This document shows positions 1-12,873 of a stretch of DNA of 12,873 bases, piece by piece. Made by a program: the position numbers and the translations under genes. Numbering within the stretch: the first letter of the stretch is position 1; every line of letters begins with the position of its first letter. This DNA comes from a virus (Duplodnaviria > Heunggongvirae > Uroviricota > Caudoviricetes). The notes below the pieces were generated by a model. The model was given only the letters and a program-made list of their open reading frames with translations. It did no database searches and had not been told where the DNA came from. The stretch lies in IMG/VR virus record IMGVR_UViG_2909309443_000005. One strand, written 5' to 3'.

Positions 1-1
1 A

Positions 2-1297
2 TTAATTTTTCATTGCTTCGTTATGGGGCATGGTTGGGGCAAACTCGCTTAACTGTGTATTTAACAAAGCTACCTGTGCATTATTGTTTTCAGACATCCA
101 TTTTCCGTATACCTGAAATACCATTTGCGCATCTGCATGGCCCATCTGGTTTGCTATAAATGCCGGGTTAGCACCAGCTGTCAGCGACCAGCAGGCATAA
201 GTATGTCTCGACTGATATGATTTTCGATGGCGGAGTCCGGCACGTTTTATCGCTGCGTCCCACATCTGCCTTATTGAGTCAACGGTAAAATGGTCACCAT
301 AATTTTTTACTCTCGCTGACACTTCAGGTTGAAAAACAAAGGTGCATTTATGTTTTTCTGTTCTGCCATACTCTCTGAGGTGAACATCAATGATATGCTC
401 TTTGCTCAGTCTCGTTAATGTCATCTGACTCCGGAGAGCGTCGATTGCTGGCTTAATAAGATGAATGACCCGATTGGTTCCCGCCTGTGTTTTTGGGACC
501 GTGAAACGGTCTTTTGCTAAATTTCTCCTGATCATCATTGTTCCATTTTTCAGATCTATGTCCTCCCATCCAAGTGCACACAGCTCACCAGGGCGAACGC
601 CAGTATAAACAGAAACACACCATAAATTTTTGGCTTGCTGATTTCTGCACGCATCGATAAGACGGATGAATTCCTCCCGCGAAAGAGGATCCGGAATGGT
701 TCTTGATTCCTTTAATGGCGAGATCCCCTTAAACGGGTTATCTGCCAGGTAACCGTTATCAACACCAAACTGGAACACGGCGTTAAGATTTGTCATGTAA
801 TTATTTACAGTTACAGCCGATCTCCCTGGTTGTGTAACAATATAGTTACTTTTGGGGATCTGGTATCCAGTCAGTAGCTCTTTACGAACCTCCAGTAATT
901 TTTCTTTATTAATCGATGAGGCAAGATTTTTTTCACCGATTATGCTCAGGATATTTTTGATGACGGCACGGTATGTGTTGAGTGATGTTTTGGCGACTTC
1001 AGTTTCTTTCAGTGCCAGAAATTTTTCAGCCAGTTCTTTTATGGTTAAATCTTGTCGGGCCTCACCAAATTTTTCCAGATTGCGTGAGGAGGGAAACTGT
1101 TTTGCATAGTCGAAAACACCAGTTTTTATTGCGTAACAAACAGAGGAGCGTAGTTCACCTGCAACGCGCCTGTTTTTTGCTGTGTCAGGAACCCCCAGAT
1201 TTTCCCTGACTCTTACGCCTTTATAAACAAACCAGATACGTAATTTCCCTCCATGGTTTTCCACGCCTGTCGGATATTTCATTTCAACTTCTCTCAT
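2..1297 (-). CDS. int: Lambdoid prophage tyrosine integrase (Rac/Qin IntR-type)
   Basis: 431-aa ORF with TAA stop at 2-4. The N-terminus (MKYPTGVE...IRIWF) and C-terminal region (RHRKSYQSRHTYACW...GANP.FIA.QMGH..AQMVF.VYGKWM) match my recollection of Rac IntR and lambda-family integrase catalytic motifs. An alternative start at ATG 1282 (MKYPTGVE) has a better SD-like GAGAGAAG upstream. The 3' end lies at the window edge, so the att site is not visible. Confidence 0.9.
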   Translation of the reverse strand: MREVEMKYPTGVENHGGKLRIWFVYKGVRVRENLGVPDTAKNRRVAGELRSSVCYAIKTGVFDYAKQFPSSRNLEKFGEARQDLTIKELAEKFLALKETEVAKTSLNTYRAVIKNILSIIGEKNLASSINKEKLLEVRKELLTGYQIPKSNYIVTQPGRSAVTVNNYMTNLNAVFQFGVDNGYLADNPFKGISPLKESRTIPDPLSREEFIRLIDACRNQQAKNLWCVSVYTGVRPGELCALGWEDIDLKNGTMMIRRNLAKDRFTVPKTQAGTNRVIHLIKPAIDALRSQMTLTRLSKEHIIDVHLREYGRTEKHKCTFVFQPEVSARVKNYGDHFTVDSIRQMWDAAIKRAGLRHRKSYQSRHTYACWSLTAGANPAFIANQMGHADAQMVFQVYGKWMSENNNAQVALLNTQLSEFAPTMPHNEAMKN

Positions 1298-1316
1298 TAG
1301 TTAGTGTGGCTTTTAG

Positions 1317-1568
1317 TCAAGTAAGATGACGTCTTGGTCTTGCTGATGCCTGGCGCTCAATCCAGCGATCAATTTCTTCCAGGTTGTAAAAGCATGGACT
1401 GTTATCCCATGGCATACCGTCATGAGCGACATGCTTATATTCCCTTCCTTCCATAAACGATTTTTCCCGGGCCTTTTTTAACGTACCTTTTTTTATTCCT
1501 TTCAGCGCAATTAACTGCTCTTCGGATACCCATTTGCCGGGAGAGACAATCATGATTACTTCGCTCAT
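1317..1568 (-). CDS. Excisionase-like small protein (Xis/DUF1233-type) upstream of int
   Basis: 83-aa ORF directly upstream of and co-oriented with int (20-bp gap). Sequence (…SPGKWVSEEQLIALKGIKKGTLKKAREKSFMEGREYKHV…) resembles lambdoid prophage excisionase-like proteins as I recall them. Position is typical for xis. Confidence 0.65.
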   Translation of the reverse strand: MSEVIMIVSPGKWVSEEQLIALKGIKKGTLKKAREKSFMEGREYKHVAHDGMPWDNSPCFYNLEEIDRWIERQASARPRRHLT

Positions 1569-1597
1569 CGATTTCTTTATCTCTTACATCAGACGAG

Positions 1598-1629
1598 CGC
1601 CGGTTGCAGAATACCAGTCACAACCGGCG
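1598..1629. repeat. Perfect 9-bp inverted repeat (CGCCGGTTG ... CAACCGGCG) with 14-nt loop, between exonuclease and xis genes
   Basis: Read directly from the sequence at 1598-1606 and 1621-1629. No U-run follows on the transcribed (minus) strand, so it is not a canonical intrinsic terminator. Confidence 0.5.
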
Positions 1630-1640
1630 ACAGTTGAACA

Positions 1641-3875
1641 TTAAGAATCAGCCTGACTCGGGATCAGTTTTTGCCAGATAGCTGAAACGTATTTTGCCTG
1701 GTAACGGGCGTCATCAAGTGCATTATGGCGCTCACCTTCGAATGGAATAGCCGTTCTGGCATCGAAGTCTATGGCTTTCCCCAGCTCAACGATTGTGCGT
1801 ACATCGCGATCGTTGTAGTAACGCCACGGGCAGGGGATCCCCTGCCGTTCGTATGAACGGCGCAAAATCGTGTTGTCGAAGTTGGCTCCATTTCCCCAGA
1901 CATGAACAAAAAATTCACCGGAGTTTTCGTCGATAAATTCCCGCAATTGTAACAGTGCATCATCTAACGGGATTTCATCGGTCATAATGGCAGATTGCGC
2001 TTCGCGTGATTGTTTAAGCCACCATTTAATGGTGTCCCGATCAATGACTCCGCCAGCAGTTTCCAGATCGATAGTCTTACTAAATTCCGGTCCCATATCT
2101 CCGGTTTGCGGATCGAAAAATATTGCACCTATTGAGATAATCGGGGCATCGGGATTTTTTCCCATGGTTTCAAGGTCGATCATCAGATGAATCCCCGCTC
2201 TGCTGGTGGATGTGAGATTATGATGACCGTTTGCCTTAATTAAGGGATCTGACGCCTCGCCAGTTTCACTATCGCTGGCATGATGCTGATTGCCGCCAGT
2301 GTTCTCCTTGTGCTGATGCGCAGTGCCTTCCATTTCCTCCGGATCATTTTCCTGAACTTCAGGCTGATTCTCTCCATCGAATATTTCCTGGTATGTTGCG
2401 TCACCCATCACCGCACCACAATCAGGGCAGTTGCCGCCACCGCTCTGACCGCAGGCGGTGCAGATCTTTTCCGGTTCCTGTTGCACTACTGGTTCAGGTT
2501 GTTTCGTTTCTGGCTCGTTTTGTTGCGTATTTGGGCTGTTTTGTTCCGCTTTCTGGTCGTTCTGTTCCGTTTCTTGCTGGTTCTGGTTCACAGAATCGCG
2601 GGTCTGGATCCCCTTAATCCATTTCGGATCATTCGGGTCGCTAATCCCTTCAACAAATTCACCACGTGATACTGCAAGCAGTTCATCGGCGTCAGGCTGG
2701 CTGATATTGGCTGCCTGCATAATTTTGTTTACTTCGTCAGCGGTAACTTTTACCGGTTCTGGCTGTGCGGTCGTGTCAGATGCACCAGTATTTTGTTGTG
2801 AACCTGAGCATGTACTGTTTTTGCGGGCGAAATATTCTTCTTTCGTGATTTCAGTAGCCCCGGCAGCCAGCGCCTTATCCAGACCAGAAAGTTTATTTGC
2901 GCGACCGTATTTTTCGCCATCCTTGTCGGTGAAGAGGAAGTAGAACGGCCCCTCACGTTCTACAGATGGTTCGACTTCCACTTTGCATTCGGTTTTTTCG
3001 TTGTCTGGAATTGCCGTTTCCACTGCATCAGTTTCTGGTACTGGCGACGAGAGAGTATCAGTTGCGCTCTGATTTGTTCCTTCATCTTCAAACACGCCCT
3101 TTGTAGTCAGGTATTCAGTAATGTATTTGTTCAGTGCCACAGGGTCTTTGTGAATGTCGATCGGACGTTCACGGACAAGGCCAAAAATAGTCTGGCGGTC
3201 GTAGCGAAGGGCATCAGGCTGTTTGCGCATTGATGCCGAGATACGCTTCCAGTCTTCGCGGTCGTTGTCGATAACTTCATTTTTTGCCCAGCGATGGATG
3301 CTGCCGTCAATGTTTCCGGCATCCACATCACCAGGCCAGAGAGCGTAGGCCAGTTCGTCATCCAGTGTTTTCCATGTCTGCTTGTATTCGCGATGAATGG
3401 CAGCAATGACCGGGTTGATTTTTCCTGTTGAATTTTCAGTGTGCTGTTGATTGGCTCTGGCGCGGGCGAGATCAACAACAGACGTGTATTTTCCGGCTTC
3501 CTTGCGTTCACCTTCGCGACGTTTTTTCCAGATGCGCATCTCTGTCTGAATTTCGGGCCATTTGGCACCAGGCTTACATTTATGCTTAACCCACCCGATG
3601 GCATGCAGCTTAAGCTCCGGATACATAGCGTTAACTTCTGGCATTTTCATCAACGCTTCAACGATATGGCCGTCGAATGTTGCCATGTCTTCCTGCAACA
3701 ATTCCTGTGCGCTAATCACCATATCAACAGTGATGTTTTCACATGTGTCGAACTTAACCATGACAGCGTTCTGTACTTCAGGGGCTAGGTTGTCAAAAGT
3801 GACGTTCATCGGATCGGATTCAGTCTCGACCGGGACAAAGGAAGCAGACGCCTCATCCCAGCGGTTTTCCTGCAT
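1641..3875 (-). CDS. Phage early-region exonuclease with C-terminal DEDDh (DnaQ-like) 3'-5' exonuclease domain
   Basis: 744-aa ORF. The C-terminal ~190 aa carry DEDDh motifs (MIDLETMG; HVWGNGANFDNTIL; HNALDDARYQAKY). The middle has a Q/E/P-rich low-complexity linker and a C-x2-C-x7-C-x2-C zinc-ribbon-like motif (CTACGQSGGGNCPDCG). ATG at 3873-3875 with in-frame stops upstream at 3921-3923 and 3942-3944. Confidence 0.8.
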   Translation of the reverse strand: MQENRWDEASASFVPVETESDPMNVTFDNLAPEVQNAVMVKFDTCENITVDMVISAQELLQEDMATFDGHIVEALMKMPEVNAMYPELKLHAIGWVKHKCKPGAKWPEIQTEMRIWKKRREGERKEAGKYTSVVDLARARANQQHTENSTGKINPVIAAIHREYKQTWKTLDDELAYALWPGDVDAGNIDGSIHRWAKNEVIDNDREDWKRISASMRKQPDALRYDRQTIFGLVRERPIDIHKDPVALNKYITEYLTTKGVFEDEGTNQSATDTLSSPVPETDAVETAIPDNEKTECKVEVEPSVEREGPFYFLFTDKDGEKYGRANKLSGLDKALAAGATEITKEEYFARKNSTCSGSQQNTGASDTTAQPEPVKVTADEVNKIMQAANISQPDADELLAVSRGEFVEGISDPNDPKWIKGIQTRDSVNQNQQETEQNDQKAEQNSPNTQQNEPETKQPEPVVQQEPEKICTACGQSGGGNCPDCGAVMGDATYQEIFDGENQPEVQENDPEEMEGTAHQHKENTGGNQHHASDSETGEASDPLIKANGHHNLTSTSRAGIHLMIDLETMGKNPDAPIISIGAIFFDPQTGDMGPEFSKTIDLETAGGVIDRDTIKWWLKQSREAQSAIMTDEIPLDDALLQLREFIDENSGEFFVHVWGNGANFDNTILRRSYERQGIPCPWRYYNDRDVRTIVELGKAIDFDARTAIPFEGERHNALDDARYQAKYVSAIWQKLIPSQADS

Positions 3876-3944
3876 ATATTCAGCATCCCAGGAATCGAGG
3901 GCAGGGCGGGGTATACCGGGTTTATCCTCGCAAACAAGAAATTT

Positions 3945-4103
3945 ATAAGCGCAGTCCTGAGCAGCCGGATAATGTTCCAGGAATTGCCAGTGAAATTTTG
4001 CGCGGGCGCGACGTTCATCACCGGCTTCAATGGCAGTGGCTACAGTGACGGCACCTTCTTCCTTTATTGCCTGTTCGTCCGGAATGGCGGCGCAAATAAA
4101 GAC
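3945..4103 (-). pseudogene. Possible 3'-terminal remnant (53 codons, no start) of an upstream early gene truncated by IS3
   Basis: Minus-strand frame is open from the IS3 left boundary (4103) down to a TAA at 3942-3944 and reads VFICAAIPDEQAIKEEGAVTVATAIEAGDERRARAKFHWQFLEHYPAASGLRL. Protein-like composition but no start codon, and no family recognised. Confidence 0.3.
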
Positions 4104-4159
4104 TGATCTTACCCAGCAATAGTGGACACGCGGCTAAGTGAGTAAACTCTCAGTCAGAG

Positions 4160-4468
4160 GTGACTCACATGACAAAAACAGTATCAACCAGTAAAAAACC
4201 CCGTAAACAGCATTCGCCTGAATTTCGCAGTGAAGCCCTGAAGCTTGCTGAACGCATCGGTGTTACTGCCGCAGCCCGTGAACTCAGCCTGTATGAATCA
4301 CAACTCTACAACTGGCGCAGTAAACAGCAAAATCAGCAGACGTCTTCTGAACGTGAACTGGAGATGTCTACCGAGATTGCACGTCTCAAACGCCAGCTGG
4401 CAGAACGGGATGAAGAGCTGGCTATCCTCCAAAAGGCCGCGACATACTTCGCGAAGCGCCTGAAATGA
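4160..4468 (+). CDS. insE: IS3 OrfA (transposase N-terminal / DNA-binding protein)
   Basis: 102-aa ORF starting [32 protein letters not shown]..., matching IS3 OrfA from memory; helix-turn-helix plus leucine-zipper-like C-terminus. Confidence 0.95.
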
Positions 4469-5331
4469 AGTATGTCTTTATTGAAAAACATCAGGCTGAG
4501 TTCAGCATCAAAGCAATGTGCCGCGTGCTCCGGGTGGCCCGCAGCGGCTGGTATACGTGGTGTCAGCGGCGGACAAGGATAAGCACGCGTCAGCAGTTCC
4601 GCCAACACTGCGACAGCGTTGTCCTCGCGGCTTTTACCCGGTCAAAACAGCGTTACGGTGCCCCACGCCTGACGGATGAACTGCGTGCTCAGGGTTACCC
4701 CTTTAACGTAAAAACCGTGGCGGCAAGCCTGCGCCGTCAGGGACTGAGGGCAAAGGCCTCCCGGAAGTTCAGCCCGGTCAGCTACCGCGCACACGGCCTG
4801 CCTGTGTCAGAAAATCTGTTGGAGCAGGATTTTTACGCCAGTGGCCCGAACCAGAAGTGGGCAGGAGACATCACGTACTTACGTACAGATGAAGGCTGGC
4901 TGTATCTGGCAGTGGTCATTGACCTGTGGTCACGTGCCGTTATTGGCTGGTCAATGTCGCCACGCATGACGGCGCAACTGGCCTGCGATGCCCTGCAGAT
5001 GGCGCTGTGGCGGCGTAAGAGGCCCCGGAACGTTATCGTTCACACGGACCGTGGAGGCCAGTACTGTTCAGCAGATTATCAGGCGCAACTGAAGCGGCAT
5101 AATCTGCGTGGAAGTATGAGCGCAAAAGGTTGCTGCTACGATAATGCCTGCGTGGAAAGCTTCTTTCATTCGCTGAAAGTGGAATGTATCCATGGAGAAC
5201 ACTTTATCAGCCGGGAAATAATGCGGGCAACGGTGTTTAATTATATCGAATGTGATTACAATCGGTGGCGGCGGCACAGTTGGTGTGGCGGCCTCAGTCC
5301 GGAACAATTTGAAAACAAGAACCTCGCTTAG
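4465..5331 (+). CDS. insF: IS3 OrfB (DDE transposase catalytic domain; expressed as OrfAB by -1 frameshift)
   Basis: 288-aa ORF overlapping the orfA stop in the -1 frame; contains DDE/rve-type residues (…WAGDITYL…[10 protein letters not shown]…SFFHSLKVE…). Confidence 0.95.
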
Positions 5332-5361
5332 GCCTGTGTCCATATTACGTGGGTAGGATCA

Positions 5362-5888
5362 TCCACCCTAAAACTATGACCAAGTATGAGATCGTCATCG
5401 TAACTACAATTGCCGTGAATATGTATGATTTGCTCGTCTGGAACGGCATAGATCTGCTGCAAGGTATTTGTATAATTAAATGAAAAATAGATGCTTTCTC
5501 TTGGTATGGGCGGGATGTATTGCTTAGGATTGTAAGCATCGGCTATGTTAATCCCTTTAACCCAATCAGCGAATTGCTCCTTCAAACGAGCTGACAGCAT
5601 TTGTGTGATTTTATTTACTTCATATTGGTAATCGTGATGATAAGCATCGCTCCAATCATCGGTATTGTATGAAGCCAAAAATATCTCACTGTTTTGAAGG
5701 ATAAGCTCATAATCAATTTCACCTAAAGCATTTTCTAACTCATTCCACTCGTCCCCAGCAGGAATGTATTCTTCTATCGCGTCATATAGATCTTGGTCAT
5801 TTTTTTCTACATACGACTTAAAGTGCTTGTATCCTGTTGGTAAGCCATGACGCATGTCAAATCCATTTCCTATTATGTAAAGCCTCAT
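5362..5888 (-). pseudogene. AbiH-like abortive-infection protein, N-terminal ~175 codons, 3'-truncated by IS3
   Basis: Minus-strand ORF from ATG 5888 (SD AAGGGA 6 nt upstream) encodes MRLYIIGNGFDMRHGLPTGYKHFKSY...SFNYTNTLQQIYAVPDEQIIHIHGNC. The N-terminal IIGNGFD..HGL motif and the FNYT...IHIHG motif are typical of the AbiH family as I recall it. The frame runs into the IS3 right end at 5361, and the last 11 codons of the six-frame ORF (5328-5361) are IS3-derived. Confidence 0.6.
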
Positions 5889-6202
5889 TGTTTTTCCCTT
5901 AGTCGAATTGTATAAAAATACTAACATGGCCTGCTCCACGTTGACTACTATCCCCTCCTTTGAGTAATGCCTTCATCAGATGTAACAACATTTGCGAGCT
6001 TCCACAGTTCGCTCAAAGCGGACTAGAAGGTTAGCTTGCGTCGGACTTGGCGTATTTAAAGAAGTGCTGGTGGAGACTGGTTGTTGTGTTCCATTTCTAC
6101 AGAACAAAATCACAGAAACTATACCCAATAGTTATATTGAATCAATGATGAGACAGCCTCATATTTATCAGGACTGGTGTACGTCCAATACAGGAGGTTG
6201 TC

Positions 6203-6292
6203 GTGCTGGTTCTCAAATGTGCGCTAGCTATTGCGGCTGTAATGGCAATTTATTGTCTTGCTGTTGTTCTTACGGATCGCCTTTCTGATTGA
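6203..6292 (+). CDS. Hypothetical 29-aa hydrophobic peptide (GTG start): MLVLKCALAIAAVMAIYCLAVVLTDRLSD
   Basis: Consensus SD AGGAGG (6192-6197) with 5-nt spacer to GTG 6203; the frame is open for 29 codons to TGA 6290-6292. The peptide is one predicted transmembrane helix with a short polar tail. Absent from the ORF track because of the GTG start. Could be a chance ORF. Confidence 0.25.
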   Translation: MLVLKCALAIAAVMAIYCLAVVLTDRLSD

Positions 6293-6299
6293 TTTTATA

Positions 6300-6328
6300 T
6301 TGGCGAGGTGACGTGAGTTAAGTAGAAT
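6300..6328 (+). promoter_or_regulatory. Putative sigma70 promoter for mok/hok mRNA (-35 TTGGCG, 17-bp spacer, -10 TAGAAT)
   Basis: Sequence-based hexamer match about 120 nt upstream of the mok start, consistent with the long structured leader of hok-family mRNAs. Not experimentally anchored. Confidence 0.3.
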
Positions 6329-6369
6329 TGCTGCGGGTGCTTGAGGCTATCTGCCTCAGGCATGAACAC

Positions 6370-6460
6370 CAAAGGCAGATAGAGAAAAGCCCCAGTTAAC
6401 ATTACGCGTCCTGCAAGACGCTTAACATTAATCTGAGGCCAATTTCATGCTAGACACATG
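6370..6460 (-). ncRNA. Putative Sok-type antisense RNA region (approximate, inferred by analogy)
   Basis: In hok/sok loci Sok is transcribed antisense across the mok translation-initiation region. A weak candidate promoter on the minus strand (-35 TTGCCT at 6486-6491, -10 TAACCT at 6463-6468 in plus coordinates) is the only sequence support. Boundaries are guesses. Confidence 0.25.
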
Positions 6461-6659
6461 TAGGTTAGCCTCTTACGTGCCGAAAGGCAAGGAGAAGCAG
6501 GCTATGAAGCAGCAAAAGGCGATGTTAATCGCCCTGATCGTCATCTGTTTAACCGTCATAGTGACGGCACTGGTAACGAGGAAAGACCTCTGCGAGGTAC
6601 GAATCCGAACCGGCCAGACGGAGGTCGCTGTCTTCACAGCTTACGAACCTGAGGAGTAA
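6447..6659 (+). CDS. Mok (modulator of killing) reading frame, in-frame N-terminal extension of Hok
   Basis: ATG 6447 preceded by GAGG. The 70-aa product MLDTCRLASYVPKGKEKQA-MKQQKAM... has the same architecture as chromosomal MokC of K-12, as I recall it. Confidence 0.6.
   Translation: MLDTCRLASYVPKGKEKQAMKQQKAMLIALIVICLTVIVTALVTRKDLCEVRIRTGQTEVAVFTAYEPEE
6504..6659 (+). CDS. hokD: Hok/Gef-family type I toxin (HokD/RelF-like), 51 aa
   Basis: MKQQKAMLIALIVICLTVIVTALVTRKDLCEVRIRTGQTEVAVFTAYEPEE matches my recollection of E. coli HokD (RelF) and is close to HokC/Gef. SD AAGGAG lies 9 nt upstream of ATG 6504. A GC stem-loop (GGCGAGGG...CCCTCGCC, 6667-6688) follows the stop. Confidence 0.9.
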   Translation: MKQQKAMLIALIVICLTVIVTALVTRKDLCEVRIRTGQTEVAVFTAYEPEE

Positions 6660-6728
6660 GAGACCAGGCGAGGGAGAAATCCCTCGCCACCTCTGATGTG
6701 TCAGGCATCCTCAATGCACCCGCACTTA

Positions 6729-6752
6729 ACCCGCTTCGGCGGGTTTATTTTA
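6729..6752 (+). terminator. Intrinsic terminator downstream of hok (CCCGC-TTCG-GCGGG hairpin plus T-rich tail)
   Basis: Stem 6730-6734 / 6739-6743 with a GNRA-like TTCG loop, followed by TTTATTTT at 6744-6751. Confidence 0.6.
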
Positions 6753-7117
6753 TCTGTAAATATTTTTATAAAAATAATGCCCACACACAGCATAAAACAA
6801 AAAGTATCACAGATAAAAAAGGAGCGTAATGTGCAGATTTGTTGTTTTCCATATTTACTCACTTTAACATAATCAATATTGATATGGTTGTTGTTTTGGT
6901 GGTTTCAAACGAGATGTTATGGTGATCTGGTAAAATTGCATAACATTAAAATTTAATTTATCTAATCGCTTTTAATAATAAGCGTTGTGTTTATCCCAAC
7001 AATCTGTTGTTTGACTTTTATTCCATTAATGTAGGGGCTTTACACTGGAACCAGTTTATTTATACTTTATACGCCAGCCTGAACAACTGGCACCTGCTGC
7101 GCCAGCAGAGACAACCG

Positions 7118-7396
7118 ATGGCGCACGATACCAAATTACACAATTCTGATGATTCTGCCGTCTTTGCCAGCAGGTGCGGACGGCGTTTTCATGCATTCAA
7201 ATCGGACTGGTTCCAGCATCCACCATGCACTGAAGAGCAGGCTGAATGGATAATTCAGTGTTACCGCAGGCGCGGATACGAGGTTAAAAAAGCCCTTAGC
7301 CTCGACTACCGTCACTGGATAATCTCAGTCAGATTGCCTTACTCCGAACGCCCACCGCGTCCGTCCCGTACATTCCAGCAACGCCTCTGGAGGTAA
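7118..7396 (+). CDS. rem: Rem-like small prophage protein
   Basis: ORF from ATG 7118 (MAHDTKLHNSDDSAVFASRCGRRFHAFKSDWFQHPPC...), 92 aa, immediately upstream of ydfU as in K-12 Qin. The six-frame ORF begins at TTG 7007 with no supporting SD. Identity rests on synteny and recall. Confidence 0.55.
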   Translation: MAHDTKLHNSDDSAVFASRCGRRFHAFKSDWFQHPPCTEEQAEWIIQCYRRRGYEVKKALSLDYRHWIISVRLPYSERPPRPSRTFQQRLWR

Positions 7397-7397
7397 C

Positions 7398-8447
7398 GTG
7401 CGGGTATTACTTCGACCTGTTCTGGTACCGGAACTCGGGCTGGTGGTCGTTAAGCCGGGCCGTGAATCCATGCCGGTATTCCACAATACCCGGGTACTGG
7501 TGGAGCCGGAACCGAAAAGCATGCGTAATCTGCCGTCCGGGGTCGTTCCTGCCGTTCGCCAGCCGCTGGTGGAAGACAAAACATTGCTGCCGTTTTTCAG
7601 TAACGCACGGGTAATTCGTGCTGCTGGTGGTGCTGGTGCATTGTCTGACTGGCTGTTGCGCCATATTAAATCCTGCCAGTGGCCACACGGCGATTATCAT
7701 CACAGCGAAACCGTTATTCACCGATATGGTACCGGCGCAATGGTGTTGTGCTGGCACTGCGACAACCAGCTGCGTGACCAGACATCCGAATCACTCGAGC
7801 AACTTGCTCATCAAAACCTGTCAGCATGGATGATTGACGTCATCGGTCACGCAATAAGCGGTACGCAGGAGCGTGAATTATCTCTGGCTGAATTATCCTG
7901 GTGGGCGGTCCGCAATCAGCTGGCGGACGCGCTACCGGAAGCGGTATTACGTCGCTCGCTGGGATTACCAGCGGAAAAAATCTGCTCGGTGTACCGCGAA
8001 AGCGACATCGTACCGGGAGAGCAGACCGCCACCAGCATATTGAAACAGCGCACAAAAAATCTTGCACCGTTGCCTCACGCCCACCAGCAACAAAACCCAT
8101 CACAGGAAAAGACGGTGGTAAGCATCACCGTTGATCCAGAGTCTCCGGAATCTTTCATGAAGCTGCCTAAACGTCACCGGTGGGTTAAGGAGAAATACAC
8201 ACGCTGGGTTAAGACACAGCCGTGTGCTTGCTGCGGTATGCCAGCCGACGATCCGCATCATCTGATTGGTCACGGGCAGGGCGGAATGGGAACCAAAGCA
8301 CATGATCTCTTTGTTTTGCCTTTGTGCAGAAAGCATCACGACGAGTTGCATACGGATACCGTGGCATTTGAAGAGAAGTATGGCTCCCAACTGGAGCTGA
8401 TTTTTCGATTTATCGATCGCGCGCTGGCAATTGGTGTGCTGGCCTAA
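7398..8447 (+). CDS. ydfU: YdfU-like DUF968 protein with C-terminal HNH-like Cys/His motif
   Basis: 349-aa ORF with GTG start 4 nt after GGAGG and 1 nt after the rem stop (translational coupling). C-terminus carries CACCG...[10 protein letters not shown]...[11 protein letters not shown]. Matches K-12 YdfU as I recall it. Confidence 0.85.
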
Positions 8448-8464
8448 TTTTGTGGAGTAAGTTG

Positions 8465-8844
8465 ATGCGTGATATTCAGATGGTTCTTGAGCGTTGGGGG
8501 GCATGGGCGGCTAATAATCATGAAGATGTGACCTGGTCGTCCATTGCCGCCGGTTTTAAGGGATTAATTCCTTCAAAAGTAAGATCTCGTCCGCAATGCT
8601 GTGACGATGACGCGATGATCATTTGTGAATGTATGGCTCGCCTGAAAAAAAAAACAACAGCGATTTACATGATTTATTGGTGGACTATTATGTCGGCGGC
8701 ATGACTTTTATGGCGCTTGCACATAAGCATGGGCGATCTGATTGTTGGGTTGGCAGGATGCTCCAGAAAGCTGAGGGCGTAGTGGAGGGCATGCTGATGG
8801 TGTTGGATCTCCGATTGGAGATGGATGCTGATTGTTCGAAATAA
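8465..8844 (+). pseudogene. Late antiterminator Q (small QuuD/DLP12-type), disrupted by frameshift in an A10 homopolymer
   Basis: ATG 8465 (SD GGAG 8453-8456) encodes [22 protein letters not shown]...CECMARLKK up to the A10 run at 8645-8654. The frame then shifts so that a second frame (8653 onward) encodes [63 protein letters not shown]. Joined, the product is about 125 aa, the size of QuuD. With 8 or 11 As the gene would be in frame. Confidence 0.75.
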
Positions 8845-8856
8845 TTAAAGGAAAAG

Positions 8857-8892
8857 TTGCTGTCTGATTTTCATTAGTCTAACATTTTAAAT
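8857..8892 (+). promoter_or_regulatory. Candidate late promoter (PR'-like) / qut region downstream of Q
   Basis: Position is immediately 3' of Q and about 60-100 nt upstream of a strong terminator, as expected for PR'-tR'. Hexamers are weak (TTGCTG ... TAACAT, or TTGGAA ... TATCAT). Positional inference only. Confidence 0.25.
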
Positions 8893-8943
8893 GTTGGAAT
8901 CGCAACGTAGTTATTATCATATAACAGCTTGTTTCCTGATTTA

Positions 8944-8971
8944 GCCAGCCTCCCCAAAGGCTGGTTTTTTT
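8944..8971 (+). terminator. Intrinsic terminator (tR'-like): GCCAGCC-TCCCCAAA-GGCTGG(T) hairpin followed by T7
   Basis: Stem 8944-8950 / 8959-8965 and T-run 8965-8971, read directly from the sequence. Confidence 0.6.
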
Positions 8972-9189
8972 CTAATAAGTATCATTTCGGGTGGGGATTT
9001 TATTGTTTAACCCATAATAGTTCATTGACATTGAATCCCAACTTTTGAGCGGTACGCACATAGTCTGCTTTTACATTATCTGGAATAGTTTGGGTCCTTG
9101 CCAGAATCCATAGGTATTCTCTGTTCGGACCACTGGTGATGCTGCCAACTTACTGATTTAGTGTATGATGGTGTTTTTGAGGTGCTCCA

Positions 9190-9465
9190 GTGGCTTCTGT
9201 TTCTATCAGCTGTCCCTCCTGTTCAGCTACTGACGGGGTGGTGCGTAACGGCAAAAGCACCGCCGGACATCAGCGCTATCTCTGCTCTCACTGCCGTAAA
9301 ACATGGCAACTGCAGTTCACTTACACCGCTTCTCAACCCGGTACGCACCAGAAAATCATTGATATGGCCATGAATGGCGTTGGATGCCGGGCAACTGCCC
9401 GCATTATGGGCGTTGGCCTCAACACGGTTTTACGTCACTTAAAAAACTCAGGCCGCAGTCGGTAA
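9190..9465 (+). CDS. insA: IS1 InsA
   Basis: 91-aa [48 protein letters not shown]..., matching IS1 InsA from memory. Confidence 0.95.
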
Positions 9466-9887
9466 CCTCGCGCATACAACCGGGCAGTGATGTGATTGTC
9501 TGCGCGGAAATGGACGAACAGTGGGGCTACGTCGGTGCTAAATCACGTCAGCGCTGGCTGTTTTACGCGTATGACAGGATACGGAGGACAGTTGTGGCGC
9601 ACGTTTTCGGTGAACGCACTCTGGCCACACTGGCGCGTCTTCTGAGCCTGCTGTCGGCCTTTGAGGTCGTGGTATGGATGACGGATGGCTGGCCGCTGTA
9701 TGAATCCCGCCTGAAGGGAAAGCTGCACGTTATCAGCAAGCGTTACACTCAGCGCATTGAGCGACATAATCTGAATCTGAGACAACATCTGGCAAGGCTG
9801 GGACGGAAGTTACTGTCGTTCTCAAAATCGGTGGAGCTGCATGACAAGGTCATCGGGCATTATCTGAACATAAAACACTATCAGTAA
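9384..9887 (+). CDS. insB: IS1 InsB' frame (transposase InsAB' made by -1 frameshift from insA)
   Basis: 167-aa ORF in the -1 frame relative to insA, overlapping it around the A6C motif. Confidence 0.9.
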
Positions 9888-9902
9888 GTTGGAGTCACTA
9901 CC

Positions 9903-10252
9903 ATTACTTGCATCATCATTTTTCCTGTTGGACTGGTCAGGTCAATGCCACCCAATGCTAAGCAATGCACTCTGATACCTGTTTCGGTCAGTTGTTCCAC
10001 TGTTTTCCTGATATCCATTGCATTACAACCAAGGCGATCCAGTTTTGTCACAATCAATTGATCACCACATTTCAGGCGAGCAAGCAACCGGTTAAAACCA
10101 GGACGCTCACTGGTTGCTGCTGAGCCGCTAATGTGTTCTTCGATTATTTGCTGAGGTTTGATTTTAAAACCTGCACTTTCGATTTCCCGGCGTTGATTTT
10201 CGGTGGTCTGATCCAGCGTTGATATCCGACAGTAAGCAAAAATTCGAGACAT
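9903..10252 (-). pseudogene. pinQ: Pin-type serine recombinase (DNA invertase), 5' ~116 codons, 3'-truncated by IS1
   Basis: Minus-strand ORF from ATG 10252 encodes [31 protein letters not shown]...[45 protein letters not shown], a serine-recombinase catalytic domain resembling PinQ/PinR as I recall them. The frame runs into the IS1 right end, and the last codons of the six-frame ORF are IS1-derived. Confidence 0.8.
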
Positions 10253-10569
10253 AGTGAGACTCTATTCGAAATTGGTGTTCATATCATAATGCATCTCAGA
10301 AAATAATTATGATTATTTTTGTGCATATTTGTATGTACACGTTCGAAAATAAACGAATGCGTATGCAACCCCGTAATTTTTGGTGAGACCCAAAATCGAT
10401 TTTGTGAAAAATGGCTTTAACTCGGTTTGTTTTTCGAGTTCCGGGCGGGCTCAAGGAAGAAGAATAGTGTTGCGTGTTATTTTAACCAGATTTCAAGTTG
10501 TTTGGACGTGGAAAAGTGGAGCAAAATGTTGTTAAAGTGGAAAAATGATAAAAAAGTAAGTTTATTATA

Positions 10570-10803
10570 TTACATTTTACCATTTAAATTTTGGTTGTCT
10601 TTAAGAACTGATATCGCTGTTTGTAATAATTCTTTGTTATCCAGCCATGATTTTTTCTTTATGTTTCCTTCAATGTAATCAAGCAATGTTCTGGTATTAA
10701 TAGGTCTTCCCTGTTTTGCTACTTCCACTACAGCATCCCCTAGGATAATTCTTACTTCAGGAAGCTGCGCAGGGAACCACTTTAGGGTGTCTTTTGATTT
10801 CAT
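10570..10803 (-). CDS. ydfK: YdfK/YnaE-family small prophage protein (cold-shock-associated), 77 aa
   Basis: ATG 10803 with SD AAGGAA 8 nt upstream encodes MKSKDTLKWFPAQLPEVRIILGDAVVEVAKQ.... The longer 88-aa ORF start at 10836 has no SD. Identity is from recall and from the K-12 Qin gene order (ydfK next to pinQ). Confidence 0.7.
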   Translation of the reverse strand: MKSKDTLKWFPAQLPEVRIILGDAVVEVAKQGRPINTRTLLDYIEGNIKKKSWLDNKELLQTAISVLKDNQNLNGKM

Positions 10804-11631
10804 GAAGATATTCCTTAAAATATTATTGATTTTCATTGCGATATTGTATGTCTGATTCAGGATATGTTGACTTATACATCGGTTTTGTCTGGGTTATTGG
10901 ATATGCCAATCCCTAATTTTATTAGGGCATGACTAAAAATGCTGAATATGATAAGGAGAGAAGTGATTATCAGTATGCTGTTCATATAGCCTCGAATTAG
11001 TAATGTGTTATATATGATATAGTTGACAATTTTTATCTTGGGTGTTTTTAAAGTTCGTAGATAAACATTGTCGTTTCAGGTATACAGGAATGCTAGCAGG
11101 TGGCAGCAAAAATCAGGCGGTTTATGGCGCAAGCTGAAGCGGCAACTGCAAACTATCTTATGCAGAGACTCTACACGGATTGGGTTTAAAAGTATACATA
11201 GATAACAGTTTTTATCTGAAAAAGAAAAATATCAAGGTGATATAGCCTATATGCCTTTGATGCGGAGGAATGACTGTGATGGGAGTGATGTATCTGAATA
11301 GTTGAAAAAACGCAGACACGCCTTATGCAAGAACGTGCTGCGGTTGGCTGGTAAATTTTTCGATAGTGTGAGTATTGAATGATTTCCAGCCGTTCTTGAT
11401 TTTACGCATAAATCCATGAAAAAACTACTTATCTGTTGGGGAGTTTTTTTGGGGCATATATGGGACAGAAATAGGCCCCAGATAGACACTGAGATCGAAC
11501 TTAGGATGCTTTTTAAAAAATGCAACTATCTGAAAAAACCTAGAAAACGCCAAGGAAACCACAGGATGGGAAAAAACACCTGTGAATTATGGATTTCCAG
11601 TTATATTCGCTCGGCGCAGCGTTAGTGTTTC

Positions 11632-12873
11632 ATGAAATATTTTTTTCCTGAATCATCAACGGCAATGGTGTTAATTCTGGCATTGGGAACCTACGGTGCA
11701 GGTTATGTGGCGCGTATTGTCGGAGCATTTATTTTCGGCAAAATGGGCGACAGAATAGGGCGTAAAAAAGTGCTCTTTATTACCATCACCATGATGGGGA
11801 TCTGTACCACCTTAATTGGTGTGTTACCGACCTATGCACAGATTGGTGTTTTTGCACCCATCTTGCTGGTGACGTTGCGTATTATTCAGGGGTTGGGTGC
11901 AGGTGCGGAAATTTCCGGTGCCGGTACGATGCTGGCGGAATATGCGCCAAAAGGTAAGCGCGGAATTATCTCCTCATTTGTGGCTATGGGAACTAACTGC
12001 GGAACCTTGAGCGCAACGGCAATCTGGGCCTTTATGTTCTTCATTCTCAGTAAAGAGGAACTGCTGGCGTGGGGATGGCGTATACCGTTCCTGGCGAGCG
12101 TTGTCGTGATGGTCTTTGCTATCTGGTTGCGTATGAATCTGAAAGAAAGCCCGGTCTTTGAGAAGGTTAACGACAGTAACCAACCGACAGCAAAACCTGC
12201 ACCTGCTGGTAGCATGTTCCAGAGCAAATCCTTCTGGCTGGCAACAGGGCTGCGTTTTGGTCAGGCGGGTAACTCCGGGTTAATTCAGACTTTCCTTGCA
12301 GGCTATTTAGTGCAGACGTTATTGTTTAACAAAGCAATTCCAACAGATGCATTGATGATCAGTTCGATTCTCGGCTTTATGACCATTCCGTTCCTTGGTT
12401 GGTTATCCGATAAAATTGGTCGCCGGATCCCGTATATTATTATGAATACCTCCGCGATTGTGCTGGCATGGCCAATGCTTTCTATCATTGTAGATAAAAG
12501 CTATGCCCCGAGCACCATTATGGTTGCACTGATTGTGATTCATAACTGTGCGGTGCTGGGATTATTTGCTCTGGAAAACATTACCATGGCAGAAATGTTC
12601 GGCTGTAAAAACCGCTTTACCCGGATGGCTATTTCTAAAGAAATTGGTGGTCTTATCGCTTCCGGTTTTGGTCCTATCCTGGCGGGTATTTTCTGCACCA
12701 TGACGGAATCCTGGTATCCGATCGCCATTATGATCATGGCATATTCAGTGATTGGTTTAATCTCTGCGCTGAAAATGCCAGAGGTGAAAGACCGTGATTT
12801 AAGTGCGCTGGAAGACGCTGCGGAAGATCAACCGCGTGTTGTAAGAGCTGCGCAACCTTCCAGAAGTCTGTAA
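11632..12873 (+). CDS. ydfJ: MFS transporter, metabolite:H+ symporter family (YdfJ); 5' end disrupted by a T7-run frameshift
   Basis: 413-aa ORF with multiple predicted transmembrane segments and MFS motifs (GKMGDRIGRKK; RIIQGLGAGAE). Upstream, in another frame, ATG 11589 encodes MDFQLYSLGAALVFHEIFF, the expected first transmembrane helix; it would fuse in frame if the T-run at 11640-11646 were 6 rather than 7 nt, giving a 427-aa protein. Confidence 0.85.
   Translation: MKYFFPESSTAMVLILALGTYGAGYVARIVGAFIFGKMGDRIGRKKVLFITITMMGICTTLIGVLPTYAQIGVFAPILLVTLRIIQGLGAGAEISGAGTMLAEYAPKGKRGIISSFVAMGTNCGTLSATAIWAFMFFILSKEELLAWGWRIPFLASVVVMVFAIWLRMNLKESPVFEKVNDSNQPTAKPAPAGSMFQSKSFWLATGLRFGQAGNSGLIQTFLAGYLVQTLLFNKAIPTDALMISSILGFMTIPFLGWLSDKIGRRIPYIIMNTSAIVLAWPMLSIIVDKSYAPSTIMVALIVIHNCAVLGLFALENITMAEMFGCKNRFTRMAISKEIGGLIASGFGPILAGIFCTMTESWYPIAIMIMAYSVIGLISALKMPEVKDRDLSALEDAAEDQPRVVRAAQPSRSL

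Follow-up and report, generated by a model that had tools for sequence, protein, structure and literature searches.

In the downstream part of the 12,873-nucleotide stretch of DNA analysed here (the window), the sequence shows a Qin-type lambdoid cryptic prophage joined to the host gene ydfJ at attR. The ydfJ remnant beyond the junction is further split by one extra T in a run of Ts, and we think this extra base probably reflects a miscounted homopolymer in the source assembly, like the gain of two bases in the A8 run of the prophage Q gene. The junction itself is not new: Qin integrates site-specifically at the 5´ end of ydfJ, with loss of the promoter and of 28 N-terminal codons (Ramisetty and Sudhakari 2019, PMC6379469), and the pseudogene status of ydfJ in strains that carry Qin is likewise documented. 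The features at and downstream of the junction are as follows.

11583-11585, plus strand: TGA that closes the ydfJ frame; phage-derived, two codons 5´ of the ATG at 11589, and different from the attB of the intact allele
11587-11597, no strand assigned: 11-bp att core TTATGGATTTC in its attR copy, where the crossover joined prophage and ydfJ
11589-11651, plus strand: short ORF of 20 codons, comprising native ydfJ codons 29-47, then a frameshifted Ser and the TGA at 11649-11651
11632-12873, plus strand: ORF of 413 aa, in which three non-native residues (MKY) precede residues 46-455 of native YdfJ; pseudogene of an MHS-family MFS transporter
11640-11646, plus strand: T7 homopolymer; all references compared have T6 here, encoding Phe46-Phe47, and the added T causes a +1 frameshift

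Direct reading and the list of open reading frames bore out the landmarks given in the initial annotation, namely the TGA at 11583-11585, the ydfJ-frame ATG (11589-11591), the ATG at 11632, the T7 run, and the TGA at 11649-11651. Its short peptide was one residue too short: 19 aa were reported, but translation gives 20 (MDFQLYSLGAALVFHEIFFS, then the stop), the final frameshifted Ser having been left out. The insertion of a T into the T6 run thus divides the remnant into a 20-codon and a 413-codon ORF, the second of which begins with MKY only because of the extra base and ends with a stop codon at 12871-12873, the final bases of the window. When one T is deleted and translation starts at 11589, the two parts join, as had been proposed, into a protein of exactly 427 aa, whose alignment to residues 29-455 of intact YdfJ is gap-free, with identity at 425 of 427 positions. 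None of the relatives examined has a gene annotated in the ~600 bp between ynfT and the att core (10986-11586), and an ORF of 69 aa that crosses the junction at 11416-11625 on the plus strand is probably spurious.

The att core was delimited by an alignment of five sequences: the empty site (attB) of strain SCEC020023, the attL sites of E1433 and K-12 W3110, and the attR sites of the window and K-12 W3110. Only one stretch, TTATGGATTTC, is identical in attB, attL, and attR. The attB sequence equals attL through the end of this stretch and equals attR from its beginning onward, a pattern that makes these 11 bp the common core. The initial annotation had asked for a matching repeat beyond the left edge of the window, and this repeat is indeed present in E1433, at positions 2954-2964 of a locus (L004) in which window position 1 is position 3001, that is, 37 bp outside the window. 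The core is therefore a short direct repeat that stands at both prophage ends and as a single copy in the empty site. The prophage boundary, placed near 11589 in the initial annotation, falls there as well, with the refinement that the core does not end upstream of the ATG but overlaps it. This ATG is not the native start, but the codon of native Met29 (…GTALEF-M29-DFQLYSL…), from which older annotation starts the gene.

Gene order at the site agrees with this assignment. The empty-site strain SCEC020023 has rspA-rspB-ydfJ-ydfI with a YdfJ of 455 aa, whereas E1433 and L1_E925 have rspB, the 5´ end of ydfJ, the prophage from int to ydfK and ynfT, the 3´ part of ydfJ as a pseudogene, and then ydfI; K-12 is arranged alike, so that the empty site, the relatives, and K-12 together give the synteny of a Qin-type insertion at the ydfJ att site. 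Site-specific recombination put the prophage into the 11-bp core, within ydfJ codons 28-31. The first 28 codons of ydfJ, with its promoter and ribosome-binding site, are thereby moved to the attL side, beside rspB. A promoterless remnant is left, which starts inside the conserved N-terminal LEFMDF motif; from MHS-family topology, we presume that this motif belongs to the first transmembrane helix. The 427-aa ORF, with Met29 as its apparent start, corresponds to residues 29-455 and so has precisely the 28-codon truncation. The suggestion in the initial annotation that the 427-aa YdfJ of K-12 is itself N-terminally shortened by Qin was correct, as it is the 455-aa protein minus residues 1-28 (PMC6379469).

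Junctions of this type are common. In a megablast search with a 701-bp junction query, the Qin-type attR flank was found in 2,936 of 5,426 complete E. coli genomes (~54%), and Qin has been found in 48% of strains (Ramisetty and Sudhakari 2019, PMC6379469). In the same search, many other genomes, which lack this prophage flank, match only from window position 11583 onward, and we saw no prophage-free ydfJ that matches the window upstream of that position. The O157:H7 genomes, in which the attR flank has ~93% identity and DinI-like and hypothetical genes adjoin ydfJ, suggest that a different lambdoid prophage may occupy the same ydfJ att site there.

A megablast search with the whole window against the 5,426 complete E. 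coli genomes identified 22 genomes with a coverage of at least 80%. Among the best were two genomes of the ETEC O6:H16 lineage, E1433 (NZ_CM180511.1) and L1_E925 (NZ_LR883050.1), with 99.9% identity over 12,873 bases, which carry the same degraded prophage with the same junction. By the RefSeq annotation of these relatives, the window amounts to practically a complete Qin-type prophage, heavily degraded, together with its disrupted target gene. Immediately to the left of window position 1 are rspB and rspA, and the prophage genes follow in the order int, xis, exonuclease, IS3, AbiH, hokD/sok, ydfU, Q, IS1, a pin remnant, ydfK, and ynfT. After ynfT comes ydfJ, annotated as an MHS family MFS transporter that is incomplete and missing its N-terminus, and then, beyond the window, ydfI. 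The features of the prophage body to which we refer below are these.

1-11586, no strand assigned: degraded Qin-type lambdoid prophage, ~11.6 kb core to core, collinear with E1433 and L1_E925 at 99.9%
2-1297, minus strand: tyrosine integrase gene int, full-length; ORF of 431 aa here, annotated as 426 aa in the relatives
1317-1568, minus strand: excisionase gene xis, full-length ORF
5328-5939, minus strand: AbiH family abortive-infection gene, annotated in the relatives, directly beside the IS3 insertion
6335-6509, plus strand: sok antitoxin RNA (Rfam, 119.9 bits), overlapping the hokD type I toxin locus
8645-8654, plus strand: A10 run in Q (Q at ~8465-8844), which is A8 in the nearest genomes; Q is frameshifted in the window
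9396-9438, plus strand: five substitutions within 43 bp of IS1, the only base substitutions relative to E1433 and L1_E925

The AbiH gene is a defence gene kept in a degraded prophage. When the whole window was scanned with Rfam, the sok antisense RNA of hokD was the only hit, and the junction gave none.

Qin (Kim), the cryptic prophage of K-12, has its attR in ydfJ (pseudogene b4600/b1543) and shares the target and, at attL as well as attR, the core TTATGGATTTC. The 60 bp of phage-side flank upstream of the attR core are identical in K-12 and the window, the two sequences are 99.0% identical over 701 bp, and the neighbors ydfK and ynfT and the 28-codon loss are common to both. The prophages themselves differ, however. 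At ~11.6 kb, compared with ~20 kb for K-12 Qin, the element in the window is a different, smaller remnant, with IS3 and IS1 insertions and AbiH, and without dicABC and the lysis/tail-fibre region. Its int and xis ORFs are intact, whereas intQ of K-12 is truncated, and to judge from these ORFs, recombination at the 11-bp core might in principle still excise the prophage and rebuild ydfJ. A further difference is central to what follows: the ydfJ remnant of K-12 has T6 and is open over 427 codons, and the run in the window is T7.

How far does the window depart from its nearest genomes? Compared base by base with E1433 and L1_E925 over 12.87 kb, it differs only in A10 versus A8 in Q, T7 versus T6 in ydfJ, and the five SNPs in IS1. 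Substitutions relative to E1433 in the ~11.5 kb of unique sequence number zero. With A8, Q is an intact CDS in both relatives, encoding a 125-aa antiterminator. Among 429 genomes that have this Q, A10 was unique; the best full-length match, Combat13F7, has A9, and the other matches listed have A8. The IS1 cluster may stem from a different variant of the element, from gene conversion among its copies, or from mixed-copy polishing of this repeat in the assembly. Runs of at least six bases number 30 in the window and make up 190 of its 12,873 bases (~1.5%). Both indels fall in such runs, both are expansions, and A10 is the longest run of all; given how little of the window the runs occupy, this association is not chance. 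The remaining 28 of the 30 runs agree with the relatives. A separate discrepancy is found in L1_E925, whose IS3 transposase is annotated as frameshifted and has T4 where the window and E1433 have T3 (~8235 of locus L005, window position 5235).

Among the matching records, the T6 form is the rule at the ydfJ site. The sequence GAA ATA TTT TTT CCT GAA (E-I-F-F-P-E) occurs in K-12 W3110, O6:H16 M9682-C1, E1433, and the prophage-free intact allele, and T6 is also found in L1_E925. A 66-bp query centred on the T run matched 4,716 records among the 5,426 complete E. coli genomes, and no record among these matches was identical to the T7 sequence. All 29 records that share the local SNP background of the window align over a 65-base span with a one-base gap, and hence have T6. 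Exact matches to a 44-mer with T7 numbered zero in GTDB representative genomes and zero in JGI metagenome contigs. The initial annotation had named T7 in reference ydfJ sequences as the observation that would count against a frameshift; since the references have T6, the frameshift reading holds.

Among the best-scoring of the 4,716 records, two gave gap-free alignments of 66 bases. In SY3626_hybrid (NZ_CP059283.1), the Qin-truncated ydfJ does have T7, whereas STEC2017-197 (NZ_CP075663.1) has an extra A directly before T6. PGAP labels ydfJ in both as "frameshifted; missing N-terminus." The SNP backgrounds of both differ from that of the window, so these +1 events, or errors, arose independently. 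Both insertions lie in the Phe46-Phe47 T-run, at ~330-340 of the respective loci (L006 and L007). They could be either recurrent true frameshifts or recurrent error, of the kind made at homopolymers in long reads.

These observations bear on whether the extra T was present in the cell. That it is an assembly error is the reading we prefer: the window has two private expansions and zero SNPs in unique sequence relative to its nearest genomes, all 29 genomes of the same background have T6, the T7 44-mer is absent from two contig collections, and the T4/T3 difference in IS3 of L1_E925 provides a comparable single-base discrepancy in a related long-read assembly. Private homopolymer expansions, one of them by two bases, without accompanying SNPs would be the signature expected of assembly miscalls. 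The initial annotation had suspected homopolymer sequencing error, and that suspicion is strengthened, as the sole differences outside IS elements are A8 to A10 and T6 to T7, each unique in the complete genomes searched (T7 in the exact 66-bp sequence). The agreement of 28 of 30 runs with the relatives implies that the homopolymer error rate of the source assembly was moderate at most, not gross.

The extra T, and with it the A10 of Q, might instead be recent genuine replication slippage, as part of the ordinary decay of a neutral ydfJ remnant and a defunct prophage, an explanation to which we give a smaller but appreciable chance. Homopolymer runs are natural hotspots of real indels, both changes lie in such indel-prone sequence and in non-functional DNA, and a dead gene exerts no selection against indels. 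The +1 insertions at the same site in two unrelated Qin-truncated copies of ydfJ, if true, also speak for slippage and against error, and the A9 run of Combat13F7 indicates that the Q tract varies slightly between strains. However, two private indels against zero private substitutions in ~11.5 kb is an unusual ratio, neither variant occurs in any of the 22 genomes covering at least 80% of the window, and slippage would have to have changed Q by two bases in one step, which is unusual for spontaneous mutation.

Whichever of these applies, we infer that the extra T is without biological consequence, because ydfJ had already been inactivated by the prophage. Intact YdfJ matches the MHS-family profile TIGR00883, which includes relatives of ShiA, ProP, and KgtP, over profile positions 1-400 with 462.9 bits and passes the cut-off of 443.45. 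The 413-aa ORF scores 427 bits, below the cut-off, over positions 23-400, so that the first 22 positions are missing and the ORF is a fragment rather than a working member of the family. On the plus strand, no promoter-like site was found in 10800-11800, which includes 800 bp upstream, and direct reading revealed no Shine-Dalgarno-like sequence before the ATG at 11589 or the ATG at 11632. We considered the latter ATG as the true start of a functional 413-aa transporter and rejected it, given the incomplete profile match, the score below the cut-off, and the lack of promoter and Shine-Dalgarno sequences.

A functional role for the T7 run, in which a programmed +1 ribosomal frameshift, transcriptional slippage, or a phase-variable switch would yield the 427-aa remnant, strikes us as very improbable. 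A U run does permit tRNA-Phe to re-pair in the +1 frame, and polymerases can slip at a low level on homopolymer tracts. In K-12, RNA from ydfJ can be detected, and it responds to DicC (bioRxiv 10.1101/2024.09.21.614188). However, a state that requires frameshifting is not conserved: in-frame T6 is the rule, being present in K-12, the intact allele, and all near relatives, and the only other T7 among the best-scoring of the 4,716 records is that of SY3626_hybrid. The tract is also short, at seven bases, and the stop codon of the 0 frame is not adjacent to the slip site. Even if made, the product would still be without a promoter, a ribosome-binding site, and its first 28 residues, and would be truncated inside a conserved N-terminal motif. 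We therefore rejected programmed frameshifting and transcriptional slippage for want of conservation, and a phase-variable locus because the tract has six or seven bases, length variants among the best-scoring of the 4,716 records are limited to one other T7 and one added A, and the promoter and N-terminus are gone.

The practical value of these findings lies in quality control. The two private homopolymer expansions are best regarded as probable assembly errors, and should not be reported as gene-inactivating mutations in ydfJ or the Q antiterminator. If real, they would illustrate how a cryptic prophage and the target gene that it disrupted decay neutrally; the biological importance is small in either case. 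A more speculative version, which we regard as doubtful, holds that T7 and A10 are both real and that the extra T adds a second lesion, an irreversible one, which would keep ydfJ off even if the prophage were lost. This idea has its sense in the full-length int and xis ORFs, since excision could otherwise rebuild the 455-aa ydfJ. Were it true, the +1 changes that recur in two unrelated strains would single out the Phe46-Phe47 T-run as a site at which Qin-silenced ydfJ decays preferentially.

The context of the intact gene offers some indication of what was lost. The neighbors of ydfJ are rspA (mannonate-dehydratase-like), rspB (Zn-dependent oxidoreductase), ydfI (mannitol dehydrogenase family), and rspR, and we assume that the rspA-rspB-ydfJ-ydfI cluster serves L-gulonate catabolism; no report linking ydfJ with gulonate was found in the searchable literature. 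From these neighbors, we infer that the intact 455-aa YdfJ, a metabolite:H+ symporter, likely imports a sugar acid.
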